Part shown: piece by piece, positions 1,457 to 8,691 of the stretch
Position numbering within the stretch: the stretch's first letter is position 1
Layout: every line of letters begins with the position of its first letter
IMG/VR virus record: IMGVR_UViG_3300029498_000126
DNA: 8,691 bases
Strand: one strand, 5' to 3'
Origin: a virus
Taxonomy: Duplodnaviria > Heunggongvirae > Uroviricota > Caudoviricetes
The notes under the pieces: model-generated
Database searches by the model: none
Seen by the model: only the letters and a program-made list of their open reading frames with translations
Told to the model about the DNA's origin: nothing
Program-made: the position numbers and the translations under genes

Positions 1457-1972
1457 ACCTGCCGCCCAGAAAGAAGCCTTTAATCTGGCTAGCCTGTTAA
1501 CAAATGTTAACCCTTACAACCTGTCAAAACCTGACATTCATCGCCGCGCCGTTGCGACAAATGACGACATTTTAGAGGCGTTTTCTGGGCTGAGAATTGG
1601 GCTGCGAATCCTAATAAATCCTAAGTTTTTTTCGAGTTTTGCGACCAGTACGCGCACGCGCGAAGGTGAGTTTTGCGAGTCCATAAAAAAGAGCTTGCCG
1701 TTATGCGGCAACACGGTTTATGGTTATAAGGCACCTCATAAAACGGGTGCCGGGATTAGGACCCCGCAGGCAATCGAGGCGATACATGACGCGCCAGCGT
1801 CTTTTTTTGTATCGGCGCACACGCACACCTTATCAATGGTGGGCTGTATGGGGCTGACTTCGGTCAGGCTGGTTTCCTTGATTGCCAGTAGTCCTAACCC
1901 TGTACAGTCCACCGCCAGCGAGCTTAGGACCTCCGGCGGTGGCTATAAACCATCAATCAAGGAGGCTGCCAC
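1457..1972 (+). promoter_or_regulatory. long untranslated leader with repeats and stem-loops upstream of the primase operon; candidate promoter/operator and RNA regulatory region
   Basis: No convincing ORF on either strand. Contains direct repeats TGTTAAC x2 (1495-1501, 1505-1511) and GAGTTTTGCGA x2 (1634-1644, 1668-1678), and perfect stems TTGCCG/CGGCAA (1695-1700/1706-1711), GGCACC/GGTGCC (1730-1735/1746-1751), CTGAC-TTCG-GTCAG (1854-1867) and CCACCGCC/GGCGGTGG (1909-1916/1935-1942), the last just 5' of the RBS of the first operon gene. Confidence 0.4.
1788..1810 (+). terminator. candidate rho-independent terminator within the leader
   Basis: GC-rich hairpin GACGC-gcca-GCGTC (1788-1801) followed directly by TTTTTTTGT (1802-1810). 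The stem is short (5 bp), so confidence is moderate. Confidence 0.4.
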
Positions 1973-2167
1973 ATGCTGGCTACTACCCCTACCCAAAAAC
2001 CGCAATTTATCTGGATTATCGCCGCAGTTCGCCGCGATTGCCCGACAATTACCGCCAAAATTCATCATATTGCTGCCGAGTCTGAACGCGATGCTCGCCG
2101 TTCTCTGGTGCGCGATCACGTCTGCTTTTTTGCTGGTCGTATCCGCATGGAGGTGGCACATGATTAA
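1973..2167 (+). CDS. hypothetical small protein (64 aa), first gene of the primase operon
   Basis: Strong RBS AGGAGG (1960-1965) 7 nt upstream of ATG 1973. Stop overlaps the next start (ATGATTAA). Confidence 0.5.
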   Translation: MLATTPTQKPQFIWIIAAVRRDCPTITAKIHHIAAESERDARRSLVRDHVCFFAGRIRMEVAHD

Positions 2168-2378
2168 AACCTACGATGTGCATATGGGTCCCCTCGAACG
2201 CACAAGCCAGATCATCACACTGACAGAAGTGATTAACGACATTCTGGTGAGCAACTCTCCCTCACGAGACGAAAGACTGAAGGCGTTACTCGCGATATTG
2301 GATCTCGCCGTTCGTGACGTTCATTTCCTGCTGGAAGGTGGCGAAATGCCAGTAAAAACGGGGGCAACCAATGAATAA
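2160..2378 (+). CDS. hypothetical small protein (72 aa)
   Basis: ATG 2160 preceded by GGAGGTGG. This is the in-frame 3' part of the long 1395..2378 ORF, but that ORF's 5' part runs through the non-coding leader and terminator. Stop overlaps the next start (ATGAATAA at 2371-2378). Confidence 0.5.
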   Translation: MIKTYDVHMGPLERTSQIITLTEVINDILVSNSPSRDERLKALLAILDLAVRDVHFLLEGGEMPVKTGATNE

Positions 2379-2565
2379 CTCAATTAATACCCCTCGCCTT
2401 ACGTCCGCACTTCAATTAATCGAGCAAGCAGCGGCTGTCCTGGTTGCTGTCAGTCTTTCGGCTGAAGAAATGGACGCTACTGATGTCGTGGATGCGATTA
2501 AAGCGTGCTCATCTTTGGTTAACGATGCCCGTGCAGAGCTGGTAATTCTTGGGGGTGAAAAATGA
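2371..2565 (+). CDS. hypothetical small protein (64 aa)
   Basis: Start overlaps upstream stop. 3' end overlaps the next start by ATGA (2562-2565). Ala/Val-rich acidic protein. Confidence 0.5.
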   Translation: MNNSINTPRLTSALQLIEQAAAVLVAVSLSAEEMDATDVVDAIKACSSLVNDARAELVILGGEK

Positions 2566-2825
2566 ATATCAACTTAATTTATCGTCATCCGTGTGAGCTG
2601 GAAATTGAATCATTGCTGAGCCGTGAAGAGCCATATCCAGACACATTCACTCTTGCAGATCGCACGACTGAACGGCTTACCAGAGCGCGCACAGGTCTGG
2701 TTCATGTGATGAATGAGATTCTTCCATCGGTGGGAGGGGAACAGGCGACAGTAATCACTAGCTGGCTACAAAAAGTTACCTCTCTGATAGATATCAGTTT
2801 AATCGATGCGGAGAGTGCGAAATGA
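2562..2825 (+). CDS. hypothetical small protein (87 aa)
   Basis: ATG 2562 preceded by GGGGGTGA. ATGA overlap with the next gene at 2822-2825. Confidence 0.5.
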   Translation: MNINLIYRHPCELEIESLLSREEPYPDTFTLADRTTERLTRARTGLVHVMNEILPSVGGEQATVITSWLQKVTSLIDISLIDAESAK

Positions 2826-3043
2826 CCAACATCCAGCTCATTGAAGCGCAATGTCGCATCGAACAGGTTCAGACTGTTTTAGGGTTCTGGCTTGAAGGGG
2901 CCAGCCCCAGCAACAGAGACAAGTTAATGATTGGCGCGGTTATGTCACTGCTCAATGGCGTACCAGAAGCTATTCAGGAAGCAGACGAATTGTTGGGCAA
3001 ATATGAGTTACAGAATCATTCAGGCGAGGCGAAACATGAATAA
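2822..3043 (+). CDS. hypothetical small protein (73 aa)
   Basis: ATG 2822 preceded by GGAGAG. Stop overlaps the next start (ATGAATAA at 3036-3043). Confidence 0.5.
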   Translation: MTNIQLIEAQCRIEQVQTVLGFWLEGASPSNRDKLMIGAVMSLLNGVPEAIQEADELLGKYELQNHSGEAKHE

Positions 3044-3638
3044 TTTCTTAACTTTCCATGCAGAAGCAACGCCTGACGGCGTAAACATCATGCACCGCAG
3101 CAACGATGGCATGACAGAACGCGTTGAGACCGTCTCATATATTGATGCCGTAAATCGTCTGGATGCCGGGGATTATGACGATAAACCAGATGAAGGTATG
3201 TCAATACATCTCGCTATAGCCGATGGCGGCAACCAGGGATATTTCGATTACACATCACAGCATAACGTCATTATGTGGAGATGGCTGATCGCAACAGTAT
3301 TCATGCTGGAAATGAGAGAGGAAAACGGCACTGTCAGCATCATTGATGATACTGGCAATCCTTCCGAAGTGGCTGTTTATTCCAACGGCATCGTCGCCAT
3401 GCCGCTGTATCCAGTAGCAGAGCGCCTCGCTATGGCAAACAACATTGAGGGAGCGATGATAGAACGTTTTGGCATCGAGTCTGGCACAGAACGCTCCATC
3501 ATTTTCTACAGAGCCATGATGGATGTGGAACAAGGAGCACTGACTCCATTTGGTCGTGAAACGCTTGCTGAACTTCACAACAGCTTTATAGCTGAACTGA
3601 ATGAAAACGGCATGCCATCGGAACCAGTGACGCACTGA
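3036..3638 (+). CDS. hypothetical protein (200 aa)
   Basis: Track ORF 2931..3638 trimmed to the in-frame ATG at 3036, which overlaps the upstream stop and is preceded by GAGG. The 5' extension would overlap the previous gene by 113 bp. No family recognised. Confidence 0.5.
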   Translation: MNNFLTFHAEATPDGVNIMHRSNDGMTERVETVSYIDAVNRLDAGDYDDKPDEGMSIHLAIADGGNQGYFDYTSQHNVIMWRWLIATVFMLEMREENGTVSIIDDTGNPSEVAVYSNGIVAMPLYPVAERLAMANNIEGAMIERFGIESGTERSIIFYRAMMDVEQGALTPFGRETLAELHNSFIAELNENGMPSEPVTH

Positions 3639-3648
3639 GGATGGAACC

Positions 3649-3990
3649 ATGATTACTAAAAATTTCCGACTGAATGCGCTGGCGAATAAGTATGCGTCGG
3701 CACTGTATAACCACATTACCTCCACCAGCGGCGGGGACTATTTCATGGTTGATGCGGACGGCCTCGCCGTCCGTGTGGAAATCGTCAATGGAGTAAAAGG
3801 CGTTCGCAGCCTGATCGATAGCTACACACTGGCAGCCATGAAAGTGTTCTACCCGCAGTGGGAAACCGTGGGGATCGAGCTTCTTGATCGTTGCGTCACT
3901 AAGGACGGATTGACTGACGTCGGGCGCGAGATATGGCAAAGCATGATTAATGATATGGGCGCGACCGTGGCAGGAGGCAACCATGCGTAA
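3649..3990 (+). CDS. hypothetical protein (113 aa), translationally coupled to the primase
   Basis: RBS GAGGATGG upstream of ATG 3649. Stop TAA 3988-3990 overlaps the primase start (ATGCGTAA). Confidence 0.5.
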   Translation: MITKNFRLNALANKYASALYNHITSTSGGDYFMVDADGLAVRVEIVNGVKGVRSLIDSYTLAAMKVFYPQWETVGIELLDRCVTKDGLTDVGREIWQSMINDMGATVAGGNHA

Positions 3991-6742
3991 TATCGACCTT
4001 ATCCGCGAAGTGACCAGCGCCGCAGCAGGGCGCTGGCCTTATGTGCTGGCTGGATTGTCTATCGACGTGCCTGATTCATCGCGCCGCCATTCTCCATGCC
4101 CTGCATGTGGTGGAAAAGACCGTTTCAGATTCGACGACAACGGGCGCGGTAGCTTTATCTGCAACCAGTGTGGCGCTGGTGACGGGCTGGATTTAATCAA
4201 GCGGGTTAACAACTGCGACACTACGGAGGCGGCACAGCTTGCCGCTGACGTGCTGGGTATTGATTACCGGGCAGCGCAAACCGACCCGGTGGCAGCGAGC
4301 CATAGAAGAGAGCAACTGGAAGCTGACCGCCAGCAGCGTGAGCAGGAGCGCCAGAAACAGGCAGCAGAGGACGCAGAGCAGCGAAGGGCTACGTTTGCCC
4401 GTCTGTATGCCGGAATGCGCCAGAGTGTCACACAGGGCGAATCTGATTACCTGCAATCAAAAGGGCTGACCGGGTTTAATTACCCGGTTATGTCTGATGG
4501 TTCGCTACTCCTGCCGCTGGTGGATGAATCCGGCGCAGTAGTGGCGGCGCAGACCATCACGCCGCAGGGAGATAAACGACTCCTGACAGGTTCAGCAAAG
4601 CGCGGGGCATATCACGCCGTAAACGCGCCAGAATCGCCGCAGAGCGTTTTAATTGCCGAGGGGCTGGCGACGGCCCTTTCAGTTCACCTGATGCGCCCGG
4701 ACGCGCTGGCAGTGGCAGCAATTGACGCGGGCAACCTGCTACCCGTTGCCGAAGTGATGCGCCGGAAGTATCCACAGGCACAAATAATCATCGCCGCAGA
4801 CAACGACCACCACCAAAACGGAGAAGCCAATACAGGCAGGGAGGCCGCAGAGAAAGCCGCCTTGTCCGTGGCTGGATGGGTGGCACTGCCGCCGACAGAC
4901 TACAAAGCCGACTGGAACGACCACCACCAGCAAAACGGGCTGGAAGTCGCTACGGCTGCGTTTAACGACTCGATGTACCAGATTCAAGGGGAAGCCGTTA
5001 AACCACGATTGCAGGCCATTGAGGGCGGTAAAACTGACCATCCAGAGAAAGACCCACTAAAACCCCACATTGAGAGCCGAAAAGATGTCGTTTTCTGGGT
5101 AACGCCGAAGGTGGACAAGGAAAGCGGGGAGATCATCAACGCTGAAAGCTGGTTATGTTCACCGTTGGAGGTTATCGGCACGGGACGCGACGACAAAGAT
5201 CAGTATCTTATTATCTCATGGCTGGCATTTGGTGCAGGCATACCGACAACAGCGGCTATCCCGCTGGCTGATATTGGCGAGCGTGAAGGCTGGCGCACCC
5301 TGAAAGCTGGTGGCGTCAACGTCACAACGAAAAACAGCCTACGGGCGATTCTTGCCGACTGGTTACAGCGAAGCGGCTCGCGTGAATTGTGGCGCGTTGC
5401 TCATGCTACAGGCTGGCAGTGTGGGGCATACATCATGCCGGACGGGGAAATCATCGGCACACCTCAGCGGCCTGTTTTGTTCAGCGGGCGCAGTTCAGCC
5501 GCTGCCGGGTATACCGTAGCAGGAACGCCTGAAAGCTGGCTTAACAGTGTTGCGCGGCTGGCATACGGCAACTACGCGATGATGACAGGCATCGCCGCAG
5601 CACTGGCAGCGCCATTAATCGGGGTGGCAGATCGTGACGGATTCGGGATTCATTTTTATGAGCAATCGAGCGCCGGGAAAACAACCACGCAGAACGTGGC
5701 GAGCAGTCTTTACGGCAACCCTGATGCCTTGCGCCTGACGTGGTATGGGACGGCGCTGGGGCTGATAAACGAGGCCGCCGCCCACAATGACGGGCTGATG
5801 CCGCTGGATGAAGTCGGACAGGGCGCAGACCCGATAAGCGTTTCTCAGTCTGCCTATGCCCTGTTTAACGGCGTGGGGAAATTGCAGGGAGCAAAGGAAG
5901 GAGGCAACCGGGATCTGAAACGCTGGCGCACCGTGGCAATCAGCACCGGGGAAATGGATTTAGAAACGTTCATCGCCACCGCAGGACGCAAGACAAAAGC
6001 GGGGCAACTGGTGCGACTGCTGAATATCCCGCTGAGTAAGGCGGTGCGCTTTCATGAGCACCAGACAGGGAAAGATCACGCCGACGCGCTGAAAGACGCT
6101 TACCAGCACCATCATGGCGCTGCCGGGCGGGAGTGGATTAGATGGCTTTCAGACCACCAGCAGCAGGCGATTGATGCCGTTCGTGAGTGTGAAGCCCGAT
6201 GGCGAAGTCTAATCCCTGCTGACTATGGGGAACAGGTTCACCGTGTAGGGGCGAGGTTCGCCATTCTGGAGGCCGCTTTACTGCTGGGTGGCGTGGTTAC
6301 TGGCTGGGATGCTCAAACGTGCCGGGATGCGATACAGCACACCTATAACGCATGGCTGAAAGAGTTCGGCACGGGGAACAAAGAGCACCAGCAGATCATC
6401 GAGCAGACGGAGGCGTTTTTAAATGCCTATGGGCTGAGTAGATTCGCGCCGCTGGGTTATGACCCGCGCGATTTACCCATCCGTGATTTAGCCGGGTACA
6501 GGAAGAAGGGGAACCACGACGGCGACCCGATAATTTTCTACACCTTCCCGGCAACATTTGAGCAGGAGATCGCACGGGGTTTTAATGTCAGGCAGTTTGC
6601 CGAAGTTCTCAAGAATGCAGGAATGCTAACACCACCAACGAGCGGGCGAGGTTATCAGGGGCGGGTAAGGGAAGGAGGGCGGCAAATTCGCGTTTATGTG
6701 CTCAACTTCATGGATGAGGAAAGCAGCCAGCCAGAAGAATAA
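3983..6742 (+). CDS. P4-alpha-like DNA primase/helicase (zinc finger + Toprim primase + P-loop helicase/ori-binding C-terminus)
   Basis: 919 aa from ATG 3983 with AGGAGG 7 nt upstream (the track ORF begins 11 codons earlier at 3950). Cys motifs CPACGG...FICNQCG at about 4097-4175. Charged Q/E/R-rich linker. Toprim-like acidic motifs (LIAEGLATALS; IIIAADNDHHQNGEANTGREAAEKAA). Walker A SSAGKTT (~5671-5690) and Walker B LMPLDEVG (~5800-5820). Architecture matches satellite-phage P4 alpha-type primase-helicases. Confidence 0.9.
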   Translation: MRNIDLIREVTSAAAGRWPYVLAGLSIDVPDSSRRHSPCPACGGKDRFRFDDNGRGSFICNQCGAGDGLDLIKRVNNCDTTEAAQLAADVLGIDYRAAQTDPVAASHRREQLEADRQQREQERQKQAAEDAEQRRATFARLYAGMRQSVTQGESDYLQSKGLTGFNYPVMSDGSLLLPLVDESGAVVAAQTITPQGDKRLLTGSAKRGAYHAVNAPESPQSVLIAEGLATALSVHLMRPDALAVAAIDAGNLLPVAEVMRRKYPQAQIIIAADNDHHQNGEANTGREAAEKAALSVAGWVALPPTDYKADWNDHHQQNGLEVATAAFNDSMYQIQGEAVKPRLQAIEGGKTDHPEKDPLKPHIESRKDVVFWVTPKVDKESGEIINAESWLCSPLEVIGTGRDDKDQYLIISWLAFGAGIPTTAAIPLADIGEREGWRTLKAGGVNVTTKNSLRAILADWLQRSGSRELWRVAHATGWQCGAYIMPDGEIIGTPQRPVLFSGRSSAAAGYTVAGTPESWLNSVARLAYGNYAMMTGIAAALAAPLIGVADRDGFGIHFYEQSSAGKTTTQNVASSLYGNPDALRLTWYGTALGLINEAAAHNDGLMPLDEVGQGADPISVSQSAYALFNGVGKLQGAKEGGNRDLKRWRTVAISTGEMDLETFIATAGRKTKAGQLVRLLNIPLSKAVRFHEHQTGKDHADALKDAYQHHHGAAGREWIRWLSDHQQQAIDAVRECEARWRSLIPADYGEQVHRVGARFAILEAALLLGGVVTGWDAQTCRDAIQHTYNAWLKEFGTGNKEHQQIIEQTEAFLNAYGLSRFAPLGYDPRDLPIRDLAGYRKKGNHDGDPIIFYTFPATFEQEIARGFNVRQFAEVLKNAGMLTPPTSGRGYQGRVREGGRQIRVYVLNFMDEESSQPEE

Positions 6743-6766
6743 TCTTTTTTCACATACGTAGTTTTA

Positions 6767-7027
6767 GTGTTGTCTCAGTTGTCTTTGTTGTCTCATTTTG
6801 TAAGTTACATTGATTTATAAGGATTTTATTTTAATTTCTGAGACAACATTGAGACAACATTTAGCCATTTTGAGACAACAGGGCGAACGTGTGTTTTTAG
6901 TCCGGCAGGCAGTGAGACAACATTTATGCCGGGTGAGACAACACGAAATTGCAAATGTTGTCTCAGCAAAACCCAGACGTGGCGCGGCCTGTAGAGCCGT
7001 GAGACAACAAAGACAACAGAGACAACA
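6767..7027. repeat. iteron array (TGAGACAACA / TGTTGTCTCA), probable origin of replication
   Basis: Core GAGACAAC on + at 6840-6847, 6851-6858, 6872-6879, 6914-6921, 6935-6942, 7001-7008, 7019-7026 (plus AGACAAC 7011-7017). Reverse complement GTTGTCTC at 6769-6776, 6787-6794, 6957-6964 (plus GTTGTCTT 6778-6785). Spacings of 11, 21, 42, 21 and 9 bp suggest helical phasing. Lies just 3' of the primase/helicase gene. Confidence 0.75.
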
Positions 7028-7057
7028 CTATTTTTGTTTATATACAAAAAAATCTGG
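7028..7057. other. AT-rich tract adjacent to the iterons, candidate DNA unwinding element
   Basis: ctatttttgtttatatacaaaaaaatctgg is strongly AT-rich and abuts the last iteron. Confidence 0.4.
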
Positions 7058-7592: not shown

Positions 7593-7603
7593 GGGGGGTG
7601 AAC

Positions 7604-7915
7604 ATGGTAAACGACAGCAAAGCTGAGGATCTGGAAGCAAAAGGGCTGTACCGACGCGCCGCCGCGCGATGGATGGAAGTCATGCTGTTATGCACCGAGG
7701 ACGATGATCGGGAATGGATAAAGCGCCGCCGTGAAACGTGTCTGGAGAACGTGAAGCGCCCGCCCGTGAAGGTTGAGGACTTTGGCGACCTGCATAAAGC
7801 TGTCACCGAAACTCAGCACCGCATGGGGATAGCGCAACCGAACGGTAACGCCTTCCGGTTAAATGGCGGCAAGAGGCAACGGCAGACCACCAGCGGGGGC
7901 GATGGTTCGCAGTAA
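7604..7915 (+). CDS. small regulator, PerC-like (103 aa)
   Basis: ATG 7604 with GAGGGGGG RBS directly upstream (the track ORF starts at a GTG at 7598). N-terminus MVNDSKAEDLEAKGLYRRAAARWMEVM...REWIKRRRETCL resembles what I recall of PerC-family activators, which are common in enterobacterial prophages and satellites. From memory, not a search. Confidence 0.45.
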   Translation: MVNDSKAEDLEAKGLYRRAAARWMEVMLLCTEDDDREWIKRRRETCLENVKRPPVKVEDFGDLHKAVTETQHRMGIAQPNGNAFRLNGGKRQRQTTSGGDGSQ

Positions 7916-7930
7916 GTTTCGCACCCAAAC

Positions 7931-8299
7931 GGCGGAAAATTTAGTACTGTTTAGTACGGATTTAAAACCCTAGCCGCGCCAGTAGCGGGCTGGAAGCCAA
8001 ATCCTGATTCAGGACGTCCTAAATATCTGGTTCGTTCCACTGGTACGCAGTCAGGTGCGCAGCAAAACTGCGCATTCAACGTGCGTACTACCTGACGAAT
8101 GCTAACGGTGGTATTGCGTACAGAAATTGCGAATTCGCAGTAATTTCTAAGCGCGAATTGCTCATTCGAAAAATAGCGGAGATGCCTGTTATTGCTGGCT
8201 TGGGCGCTATCCGTTCGCAGTAGATGGCGGAAGTTAGATATACAGTTTTATTAAGGTATTGTTAGGGTTTGTTAAGGTTTTTGCGCACAAAAATGCGCA
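7931..8299. promoter_or_regulatory. dyad-symmetry-rich intergenic region: candidate operator/promoter and/or packaging (cos/pac-like) site
   Basis: Direct repeats TTTAGTAC x2 (7931-7938, 7941-7948). Interleaved inverted repeats GTACGCA (8043-8049)/TGCGTAC (8082-8088) and GTCAGGT (8050-8056)/ACCTGAC (8090-8096) around TGCGCA-N7-TGCGCA (8056-8074). Near-perfect palindrome GAAATTGCGAATTCGCAGTAATTTC (8123-8147). Tandem ~10-bp T-phased repeats (8251-8280). Second TGCGCA-N6-TGCGCA site (8282-8299) 15 bp upstream of the ATG at 8314. Confidence 0.45.
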
Positions 8300-8313
8300 C
8301 AGTGAGCCGTTAA

Positions 8314-8691
8314 ATGAAAAAAAATAGCCAACAATCAAGATCGGGATGGGGTGGCAAGCGGAAAGGCGCAGGCGCACCATTGGGCAATACTAATGCCGTC
8401 AAACATGGCGAACGCAGTCGGCGGGCATTCTTCCCATTTGAGGGGGGAGAGGCGCTTTCTCCGCTGGTGCGAAATCGTGCAAGAAACCTCATGCTGGCTG
8501 AGAGATACGGGCTATTACTGGCGAATAATCCGACGCCGGGAACAGAAGAATGGCGCGAGATGACATTGATTAACGGACTCATGGGGCTACATGCCGACAG
8601 AATCGCACGGCTTGAGCTGAGATTAGCGAGAGCCGTTTCAATGCAAGCAAGGCGGGATCTGCGAAGGGTTAAAAAAAGCGGCGCATGTTAG
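8314..8691 (+). CDS. hypothetical basic protein (125 aa); possible small-terminase-like or packaging-associated DNA-binding protein
   Basis: Complete ORF ending with TAG at the window edge. Basic glycine-rich N-terminus GWGGKRKGAGAPLGNTNAVKHG is reminiscent of DNA-binding N-termini seen in some phage small terminase subunits. Helical Arg-rich C-terminal half. Functional call rests on that motif and the position after the dyad-rich region, so it is tentative. Confidence 0.4.
   Translation: MKKNSQQSRSGWGGKRKGAGAPLGNTNAVKHGERSRRAFFPFEGGEALSPLVRNRARNLMLAERYGLLLANNPTPGTEEWREMTLINGLMGLHADRIARLELRLARAVSMQARRDLRRVKKSGAC

Follow-up and report, generated by a model that had tools for sequence, protein, structure and literature searches.

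Why should a primase gene be preceded by seven small open reading frames (ORFs) joined almost end to end, and what would switch such a run of genes on or off? The question is raised by an 8,691-nucleotide (nt) stretch of Caudoviricetes DNA, IMG/VR record IMGVR_UViG_3300029498_000126, which is referred to below as the window. The seven ORFs occupy positions 1973-3990 and lead into the gene for a primase-helicase. We consider it likely that the ORFs and the primase gene together form an RNA-gated, translationally coupled early (replication) operon, similar to the left operon of P4 and the immI operon of P1, and that this operon belongs to a phage-inducible chromosomal island (PICI) of the type represented by EcCIMP1 of Escherichia coli MP1.

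An antisense RNA ahead of the first gene

The evidence for RNA control lies just upstream of the first gene, ORF1, where the following features were placed.

1695-1724, plus strand: candidate sigma-70 promoter for a leader RNA (TTGCCG, 18-nt spacer, TATGGT)
1731-1807, plus strand: isrK/seqA-like leader RNA (Rfam RF01394, 63 bits against a gathering score of 50)
1771-1779, plus strand: upstream target of the C4 loop, CAATCGAGG, inside isrK, located by its complementarity to the loop
1788-1801 (stem), T-run to 1808, plus strand: intrinsic terminator ending isrK, from the terminator scan
1832-1919, plus strand: C4/CI-type antisense RNA (Rfam RF01695)
1873-1884, plus strand: loop of C4 hairpin 2, TTTCCTTGATTG, the specificity determinant as judged by covariation with its targets
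1954-1965, plus strand: seqC/a2b2-like target, CAATCAAGGAGG, overlapping the ORF1 Shine-Dalgarno sequence AAGGAGG (1959-1965)

The C4 RNA matched RF01695 over the full length of the model (80.2 bits, gathering score 45, E = 6e-16), has a predicted fold of -42.4 kcal/mol and lies 54 nt upstream of ORF1 on the same strand. Ten contiguous bases at the ORF1 Shine-Dalgarno sequence, CAATCAAGGA (1954-1963), are complementary to its loop. When duplexes with C4 hairpin 2 were scanned over 1650-2200, the isrK site (-25.7 kcal/mol) and the ORF1 Shine-Dalgarno site (-25.6 kcal/mol) were the two best, the next reaching -16.1 kcal/mol; the loop alone paired with the Shine-Dalgarno target at -14.4 kcal/mol. 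The loop, the isrK target and the Shine-Dalgarno target co-vary three ways over 10 loop types from 19 loci, P4 included, and loop duplexes with the Shine-Dalgarno target averaged -13.6 kcal/mol for cognate as compared to -5.3 kcal/mol for non-cognate pairs. Within E. coli, a near-identical ORF1-7 chain was found behind at least four different C4 specificities. Judged from these complementarities, the isrK and C4 module appears to gate the chain, with the antisense RNA switching the operon off.

The loop and its two targets reproduce the geometry of seqA, CI (seqB) and seqC in P4 immunity and that of a1b1, a'b' and a2b2 in P1 c4. Three sequence traits of C4/CI antisense-RNA immunity were found here: a C4 fold in the leader, two targets complementary to its loop, and an Icd/Kil-like first ORF coupled to what follows. 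The Rfam C4 and isrK models pick up relatives of P4 CI and seqA, and both match Gram-negative PICIs (Mageeney et al. 2023, PMC10111431); according to Hershko-Shalev et al. 2016 (PMC4825925), IsrK is structurally homologous to P4 seqA. The isrK match begins 7 nt past the end of the candidate promoter, whose sequence block is also preserved in related loci and can be aligned with the PLE region of P4.

The stretch containing isrK and C4 (1731-1994) was approximately 90% identical to a segment of many Shiga toxin (Stx) 2a-converting phages. In the locus used for comparison, Stx2 phage P13771 (4001-4260), the module stands before a 286-codon ORF in the Icd frame, labelled 'regulatory protein', with antB and N coming after it. 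Since the C4 loops of the window and of the Stx2a phages differ by 1 nt and both targets are identical, RNA-level co-immunity would be predicted between them; calculated cross-duplexes were as strong as cognate ones. Phages of the phiP27 type also hold an isrK-C4 module, beside Ant genes. A search with the corresponding stretch of EcCIMP1, whose C4 loop is of type TTGTACG as compared to TTGATTG in the window, returned 189 phage records with modules; among the matches listed, none was near-identical and the EcCIMP1 helper phage Kapi1 was absent. In elements with the TTGTACG loop (L005, 4740-4790; EcCIMP1, approximately 23760-23800), some 40 nt are inserted after the isrK terminator and before C4. 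The inserted stretch contains a perfect TATAAT, …TTCAGTGATG(C/T)GGTTATAATCCGCG…, and is not present in the window; it may provide the C4 RNA with a promoter of its own.

The coupled chain and its proposed working

The genes of the chain and their junctions are as follows.

1973-2167, plus strand: ORF1, 64 amino acids (aa)
2160-2167, plus strand: ORF1/ORF2 junction, ATGATTAA overlap
2160-2378, plus strand: ORF2, 72 aa
2371-2378, plus strand: ORF2/ORF3 junction, ATGAATAA overlap
2371-2565, plus strand: ORF3, 64 aa
2562-2565, plus strand: ORF3/ORF4 junction, ATGA overlap
2562-2825, plus strand: ORF4, 87 aa
2822-2825, plus strand: ORF4/ORF5 junction, ATGA overlap
2822-3043, plus strand: ORF5, 73 aa
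3036-3043, plus strand: ORF5/ORF6 junction, ATGAATAA overlap
3036-3638, plus strand: ORF6, 200 aa
3639-3648, plus strand: ORF6/ORF7 junction, 10-nt gap
3649-3990, plus strand: ORF7, 113 aa
3983-3990, plus strand: ORF7/primase junction, ATGCGTAA overlap of 8 nt
3983-6742, plus strand: primase-helicase (zinc ribbon, Toprim, DUF927), 919 aa, last gene of the chain

These coordinates and junctions exactly reproduce those of the initial annotation, which had been made from the sequence alone and had described seven head-to-tail ORFs with six overlaps and one 10-nt gap. It had also credited most ORFs of the chain with ribosome-binding sites of their own; a purine-rich, Shine-Dalgarno-like stretch was found at most about 15 nt from the start codon of each of the seven. 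The primase matched Pfam families PF08273, PF13362 and PF06048, as well as phrog_1139 (DNA primase) at 4.6e-177.

Purifying selection is acting on all seven ORFs, to judge from substitution patterns. Ratios of non-synonymous to synonymous substitution (dN/dS, Nei-Gojobori) among close relatives were 0.24, 0.21, 0.17, 0.26, 0.07, 0.27 and 0.17 for ORF1 to ORF7, and 0.17 for the primase in the same comparison. The initial annotation had named a lack of protein-level selection as one outcome that would speak against its reading of the chain. The range of 0.07-0.27 over all seven, together with the conserved overlaps, supports a co-translated operon feeding the primase as real. In six gap-free, near-identical copies, the pooled polymorphisms of ORF2-7 were 42 synonymous to 33 non-synonymous in the called frames, as compared to 14/61 in one alternative frame and 11/64 in the other (Fisher 4e-6 and 2e-7, respectively), with small samples for ORF2 (11 segregating sites) and ORF3 (7). 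ORFs on the minus strand (e.g. 3255-3725 and 3586-3984) lie antisense to genes under purifying selection and were treated as mechanical, nothing having been found in their favour. An all-against-all blastp of the seven ORFs detected no paralogy at that level.

Related loci (27 genomic loci retrieved through the ORF6 family, plus E. coli copies) show a layout that is constant and a gene content that varies. The interval from Icd to the primase was a chain of small ORFs in all 22 related loci in which it was followed, representing more than 12 genera of Enterobacterales. The order was Icd, one to five small ORFs drawn from more than 15 families, the ORF6-family gene, a gap of 6-12 nt, and then either an ORF7-family gene overlapping the primase gene by 8 nt or the primase gene directly. 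Of 128 junctions in the 22 loci, 98 were start/stop overlaps (55 of -4 and 37 of -8) and 26 were gaps of at most 16 nt, counts that are partly built in because the tiling script takes the start nearest the preceding stop. The overlapping junctions were kept across these loci despite the differing gene content. In E. coli, the block at about 1666-3977 was common to the copies at up to 98.9% identity while the flanks differed, and the chain was carried by approximately 480 of 5,426 complete genomes.

ORF1, the first gene, is an Icd/Kil-type small basic protein (isoelectric point (pI) 9.5), and an activity of that type would be expected of it. It matched the Icd-like family NF033153 at 71.7 bits (cut-off 25, 3.7e-20), showed 44% identity with the ORF in the kil position of P4, next after the CI RNA, and was present in 21 of 26 related loci. 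The initial annotation had recognised none of the products, which does not hold for ORF1.

A much longer frame overlies the start of the chain:

1395/1443-2378, plus strand: long Ash/Eta-like ORF of 327-337 codons, from the open reading frame list

Its in-frame start candidates are GTG 1395, ATG 1422 and GTG 1443, the last of which overlaps the end of the upstream DUF4222 gene. The frame runs across isrK and C4, passes through ORF1 in the +1 frame and stops at the stop codon of ORF2. The equivalent ORF is named 'ash family protein' (343-355 aa) by the Prokaryotic Genome Annotation Pipeline (PGAP) in the sister elements L032 and L035-L037. Each of the 19 loci examined had a long ORF across C4, which used either the Icd frame or that of ORF2. 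The former was seen in P4, where the eta/kil nesting is published (summarised in PMC10111431), in a Stx2 phage and in seven enterobacterial islands; the +1 frame, ending on the next small ORF, was seen in the window, its E. coli relatives and one Klebsiella michiganensis island. In both arrangements the stop of the long ORF sits on the start of the following gene.

Pfam Phage_ASH (PF10554) matched the middle of the long ORF at 1.8e-14 (about nt 1719-2007). In P4 the same family likewise falls on the frame over the CI RNA (8168-8584), and P4 epsilon belongs to PF25738. The Phage_ASH match is a translation of RNA genes and not P4 epsilon, which makes it a trap for annotation. PF10554 has been used as an 'epsilon' marker for P4-like satellites (PMC8628076); because it matches the frame across the RNA genes, that marker in fact tracks the RNA immunity region.

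ORF2 is acidic, has GGAGG 5 nt before its ATG and was confined to the E. coli-type chain among the related loci. It could be a stand-alone product and also supplies the predicted C-terminal tail of the Ash/Eta-like ORF.

Taken together with P4 and P1 precedent, these features would allow the operon to work as follows. In the resting state, the weak constitutive promoter at about 1695-1724 would yield the leader RNA, and most transcripts would end at the isrK terminator (1788-1808). Transcripts that read through would be processed into the C4/CI-like RNA (1832-1919), whose loop would pair with the leader site at 1771-1779 and with the ORF1 Shine-Dalgarno sequence at 1954-1963. This block at the ribosome-binding site of ORF1 would keep ribosomes out of the chain. 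Because nearly every gene starts on the preceding stop codon, the rest of the chain would be starved of most ribosomes; the bare RNA would be terminated early, probably by Rho, and the primase would not be made. A single RNA contact could thereby silence approximately 4.8 kb, since the unbroken coupling relays one ribosome entry point.

In the induced state, transcripts would come from upstream, from the region of alpA, a 144-aa ORF, AntA and DUF4222. Ribosomes in the Ash/Eta-like frame (1395/1443-2378) would cross isrK, C4 and the ORF1 region, override the switch and be passed on at ATGAATAA (2371-2378) to ORF3 and thence to the primase. This part of the scheme is suggested by analogy with PLL and eta of P4 and by the requirement of EcCIMP1 for alpA.

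The comparison with P4 also confirmed the placement made in the initial annotation, at the position of the P4 left operon (PLE, seqA, CI RNA, seqC, kil/eta, epsilon, orf151, orf106 (cnr), alpha). P4 and the window both have a leader with a terminator, an antisense RNA, a target over the Shine-Dalgarno sequence of an Icd/Kil-like ORF, overlap-joined small ORFs followed by a primase gene, and a long ORF across the RNA genes; the P4 terminator is nearly identical to that of isrK in the window. In contrast, P4 epsilon, orf151, sid, psu and delta have no homologues here, the long ORF lies in the kil frame in P4 but is +1 to Icd and ends in ORF2 in the window, the window primase is of the DUF927 type and approximately 35% identical over part of its length, and ORF6 is twice the size of Orf106. 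When the seven ORFs were compared by blastp with P4 epsilon, Orf151, Orf106 and Orf88, nothing was found, and the sole match to P4 was that of ORF1 to the ORF in the kil position.

Products of the chain and alternative explanations

The initial annotation had recognised no product. Scans of Pfam, NCBIfam, PHROGs and PADLOC gave no named family for ORF3, ORF4, ORF5 or ORF7, and to that extent its view stands; ORF1 proved Icd-like, and ORF6 appeared remotely Cnr-like. The profile searches it had called for gave a name to ORF1 only, while ORF5, ORF6 and ORF7 fell into PHROG families of unknown function.

The ORF6 family comprises 124 representative clusters. ORF6 was found in 26 related loci and ORF7 in 14, and ORF6 stood directly before ORF7 or the primase gene in approximately 24 of the 27 genomic loci, everything upstream being variable. 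ORF6 is very acidic (net charge -21). Its AlphaFold2 model had a per-residue confidence score (pLDDT) of 93.7 and a predicted template-modelling score (pTM) of 0.88, and consists of an N-terminal beta-sheet plus helices and a C-terminal helical domain. A search of the PDB with the ORF6 family profile found nothing, and the model showed no known fold; the ORF7 model was also confident (pLDDT 91.9) and had no informative fold match. Structure prediction, likewise called for earlier, has thus given two confident models and no match to a known fold.

In profile alignment, residues 127-186 of the ORF6 family aligned with residues 38-101 of P4 Orf106 (DUF5375), with an hhalign score of 34.3 (E = 2e-5, probability 77%). 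Controls against the ORF6 family reached at most 18.4 with 200 shuffles of Orf106, 14.0 with its reversed sequence and at most 12.4 with other P4 proteins. The gene for Orf106 lies just before alpha, the same pre-primase position as that of ORF6. In P4-like elements, cnr lies between epsilon and alpha, and its family was reported in 90% of them (PMC8628076). A more diverse DUF5375 profile was sought in viral contigs and could not be built because each of the 80 loci retrieved shared 93-100% identity with P4.

ORF7 begins with a near-invariant helix, MITKNFRLNALAN. A nucleotide element was considered as the cause of this invariance and rejected; synonymous sites vary in this part of the gene, and the constraint is therefore on the protein. 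ORF7 and the C-terminal half of ORF6 have their helices and hairpins in the same order, and both proteins contain the motif L(T/S)xxGRE. Alignment of the two family profiles scored 24.4, a marginal value given that 100 column shuffles reached up to 21.8 (hhalign probability 12%); ORF7 and the ORF6 C-terminal domain may be distant paralogues. Alignment of the ORF7 family with P4 Orf106 by hhalign found nothing. We propose that ORF6, and probably ORF7, would act as Cnr-like acidic partners or regulators of the primase-helicase. The apparent remote likeness of ORF6 to Cnr and its tie to the primase gene point to replication control and not to derepression of a helper phage.

Several observations weigh against this account of the operon and of ORF6. 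The candidate promoter was not reported by the promoter scan because it fits only 8 of 12 consensus positions. Transcription, RNA processing, termination and coupling have all been read from sequence and from P4 and P1 precedent. Most downstream ORFs have Shine-Dalgarno-like sequences of their own, so that independent translation is possible and polarity may be weaker than proposed. Since the long ORF and Icd use different frames in this lineage, unlike in P4, the eta/kil logic of P4 may not transfer exactly. As for ORF6, it and its relatives missed the gathering score of DUF5375 (PF17345) in direct scans (best member, E = 0.16), and the functional reading depends on Orf106 being the product of cnr, which we take to be a copy-number regulator that binds the alpha protein. 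Finally, homologues of ORF6 and ORF7 occur in the early-left operons of Stx phages of the phiP27/phi467 type, away from the primase gene.

The last of these observations is at home in another explanation, possible if doubtful, in which ORF6 and ORF7 are general early phage proteins that adjoin the primase gene because the operon is compact, and the likeness of ORF6 to Cnr is a coincidence of helical bundles. At least 36 phage records carry ORF6/ORF7 homologues with no adjacent primase gene, and this explanation also gains from the failure of direct hidden Markov model scans to reach DUF5375 and from the hhalign probabilities for the ORF6-Cnr and ORF6-ORF7 pairs. However, the ORF6-Cnr score lies far above that of every control, ORF6 keeps its place beside ORF7 or the primase gene while the genes upstream change, P4 Orf106 occupies the same position, and phi467 does encode a zinc-ribbon primase, elsewhere in its genome. 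Several parts of the satellite early region, the isrK-C4 module included, are thus common to this group of temperate phages.

The small ORFs between Icd and ORF6 form a variable slot. ORF3 is acidic (pI 4.2) and was seen only in the E. coli-type chain, apart from weak matches in the loci L014 and L029; its weak matches to TY-Chap1 (E = 0.006) and CARF (E = 0.005) were below cut-offs and were dismissed. ORF4, also acidic, had the widest spread in the slot (17 related loci) and corresponds to 31 protein clusters, all either unnamed or misnamed 'nicotinic acetylcholine receptor subunit beta', a spurious label that has been propagated among ORF4 homologues in RefSeq and UniRef. ORF5 is acidic, matched phrog_20558, a family of unknown function, at 2.9e-9 and was found in 13 loci, where it is sometimes duplicated and alternates with an unrelated family of 64-69 aa (f8). 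Searches of phage records by tblastn with ORF4 and ORF5 found nothing. By their distribution and composition, ORF3-5 are probably exchangeable small acidic accessory proteins.

The initial annotation had suggested that such genes could be undescribed manipulators of the helper phage or host (derepressors, takeover or anti-defence factors). Expressed early, ORF3-5 and perhaps ORF6 and ORF7 could play such a part, which we judge rather unlikely. The position of the operon is that of P4 epsilon, and the slot, with one to five ORFs from more than 15 unrelated families and with duplications, has the pattern of arms-race cargo. The proteins are small and acidic, with ORF6 the extreme, like many phage inhibitors and DNA mimics; homologues of ORF6 and ORF7 lie in early-left operons of temperate phages, the usual place of host-takeover genes, and no known fold or family was found that contradicts this role. 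Yet nothing in the chain resembles epsilon or any PADLOC entry: PF25738 matched P4 epsilon at 2.9e-50 and no window ORF at E <= 0.1, and blastp against epsilon found nothing. The published induction of EcCIMP1 and Gram-negative PICIs runs through helper-induced alpA, not through derepression of the helper (PMC11773190), and the available leads point elsewhere, from ORF1 to cell division or killing and from ORF6 to Cnr-like replication control.

The same slight likelihood is given jointly to a slot for helper manipulation, with ORF3-5 and perhaps ORF6/7 as new inhibitors, or to RNA cross-regulation with Stx2a phages. If ORF3-5 inhibited proteins of the helper phage or host, the slot from Icd to ORF6 would be a hotspot of satellite-borne counter-measures. 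If the RNA cross-talk were true, the C4 RNA of the island could silence the Icd-antirepressor gene of the phage, and that of the phage could keep the replication operon of the island off until the phage is derepressed.

A different reading of the RNA module is offered by Gifsy-1. In P1, c4 blocks icd translation, which causes termination upstream of ant. In P1/P7 immI (c4, icd, ant) and in Gifsy-1 (isrK-orf45-anrP), the leader of the controlled operon is processed to give an RNA of the C4 family, whose target covers the ribosome-binding site of a first ORF of small size, and the downstream genes are coupled, an arrangement that the window appears to share; in Gifsy-1, orf45 is coupled to anrP by AUGA (PMC4825925). 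An antirepressor is the product controlled there, whereas control here would extend to a primase and seven small proteins. In the window, Icd has no Ant domain after it, and the AntA gene lies upstream of the RNA module. The chain could be turned on by IsrK acting in trans on translation of the first ORF, with no C4 repression of the P4 type, an explanation to which the above-threshold match to the isrK model lends some weight. We consider it improbable: the complementarity that covaries is that of the C4 loop with two targets, in the seqA/seqB/seqC geometry of P4, and an Icd/Kil-like ORF comes first, as it does in P4 and P1. The two mechanisms are compatible, because the isrK transcript could titrate C4.

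That some ORFs, chiefly ORF2 and ORF3, are open by chance or through constraint on the RNA is hardly credible: both are limited to one close lineage with few polymorphisms and have no family match (for ORF2 in Pfam, NCBIfam and PHROGs scans), and PGAP annotates ORF2 in certain genomes and leaves it out in others, but enrichment of synonymous changes is limited to the called frame (synonymous/non-synonymous 6/5 as compared to 1/10 and 3/8 out of frame for ORF2, and 5/2 as compared to 1/6 and 1/6 for ORF3), dN/dS is about 0.2 for both, their Shine-Dalgarno sequences are good and their start/stop overlaps exact, and the ORF2 frame is needed for the Ash ORF to end on the start of ORF3.

The island and the meaning of its proposed RNA switch

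The RNA-gated replication operon that we favour lies in an element which the initial annotation had compared with P4-like satellites. Comparative evidence indicates that it is a PICI of the EcCIMP1 type instead. EcCIMP1 (NZ_CP139039) matched window positions 1867-3977 at 97.4% nucleotide identity; its ORF1, ORF4 and ORF5 proteins were 100% identical to those of the window, and ORF2, ORF3, ORF6 and ORF7 were 96-98% identical. The two elements have in common alpA, the 144-aa ORF, AntA, DUF4222, Ash, Icd, the chain, a Toprim/DUF927 primase and later PerC. EcCIMP1 differs in its C4 loop, as described above, in its primase (79% identical), in its downstream regions and in an extra 123-aa ORF before the primase gene. 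This overlap-joined ORF, between ORF7 and the primase gene, was also seen in L005 (6948-7319), L032 and L033 (3511 onward) and is absent from the window. EcCIMP1 was excised, circularised and transferred only with the helper phage Kapi1, and alpA was required (Pick, Stadel and Raivio 2025, PMC11773190); its analyses extended to neither the RNA module nor any of the chain's ORFs.

A complete sister island of E. coli, L001, lies between yicC and dinD and matched most window ORFs at 92-100% protein identity. Its order is int, a hypothetical gene, alpA, the 144-aa ORF, AntA, DUF4222, Ash, Icd and the chain, followed by the primase gene, an iteron origin, the gene for a single-stranded-DNA-binding protein (SSB), PerC and cargo. 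It contains no capsid, sid, psu or delta genes, and sid, psu and delta are absent from EcCIMP1 too. The window itself holds AntA, DUF4222, Ash, the primase, the iteron origin, SSB and PerC, while int and alpA, present in L001 and EcCIMP1, fall outside it. The layout found, with an int/alpA end, a primase gene with an adjacent origin and no structural or lysis genes, is that of Gram-negative PICIs, helper-induced elements of about 10-15 kb with int, alpA, a Bro zone, a replication zone and a late zone, for which a four-zone layout has been described (PMC10111431).

Upstream of the RNA module (1-1456), the 144-aa ORF, AntA/AntB (448-1281) and DUF4222 (1274-1456) likewise adjoin one another through overlaps or short gaps. 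Their counterparts in L001 follow alpA by an ATGA overlap, and the coupled chain therefore spans alpA to the primase gene and does not begin only at 1973.

Downstream of the primase gene, the AT-rich stretch before the SSB gene (6742-7053) holds at least 10 exact copies of the iteron GAGACAAC in both orientations, as compared to 0.19 expected. All 10 exact copies lie within 6769-7026, in the forms TGAGACAACA and TGTTGTCTCA; none was found within the seven-ORF chain. The cluster is probably the replication origin of the island. Farther on, 7598-7915 encodes a PerC-family regulator; the PerC homologue of EcCIMP1 is a repressor of LEE (the enterocyte effacement locus) in Citrobacter rodentium (PMC11773190). 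An ORF of at least 125 aa (8314-8691) runs off the end of the window, has no family match and is 100% conserved in L001.

The operon is real but is no new kind of system, because its logic is that of P4 and P1, the PICI group is published and the proteins are in databases as hypothetical. What appears not to have been described before is the frame-shifted arrangement of Ash and Icd, the exchange of many heteroimmune loop types ahead of one chain, the putative remote link of ORF6 to Cnr, and a C4 specificity in the window identical to that of Stx2a phages.

ORF6 and ORF7 are a conserved, structurally unmatched pair beside the primase gene, for which Cnr-like control of copy number is a hypothesis, and ORF3-5 are variable cargo worth screening. 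For the island family, common in E. coli and the Enterobacterales, the findings suggest that a whole replication operon would be gated by an antisense RNA of the P4/P1 type, with many heteroimmune RNA specificities exchanged independently of the genes behind them. Such gating would also give a mechanistic reason for the unbroken chain of overlaps, in which a single ribosome entry would govern everything downstream.

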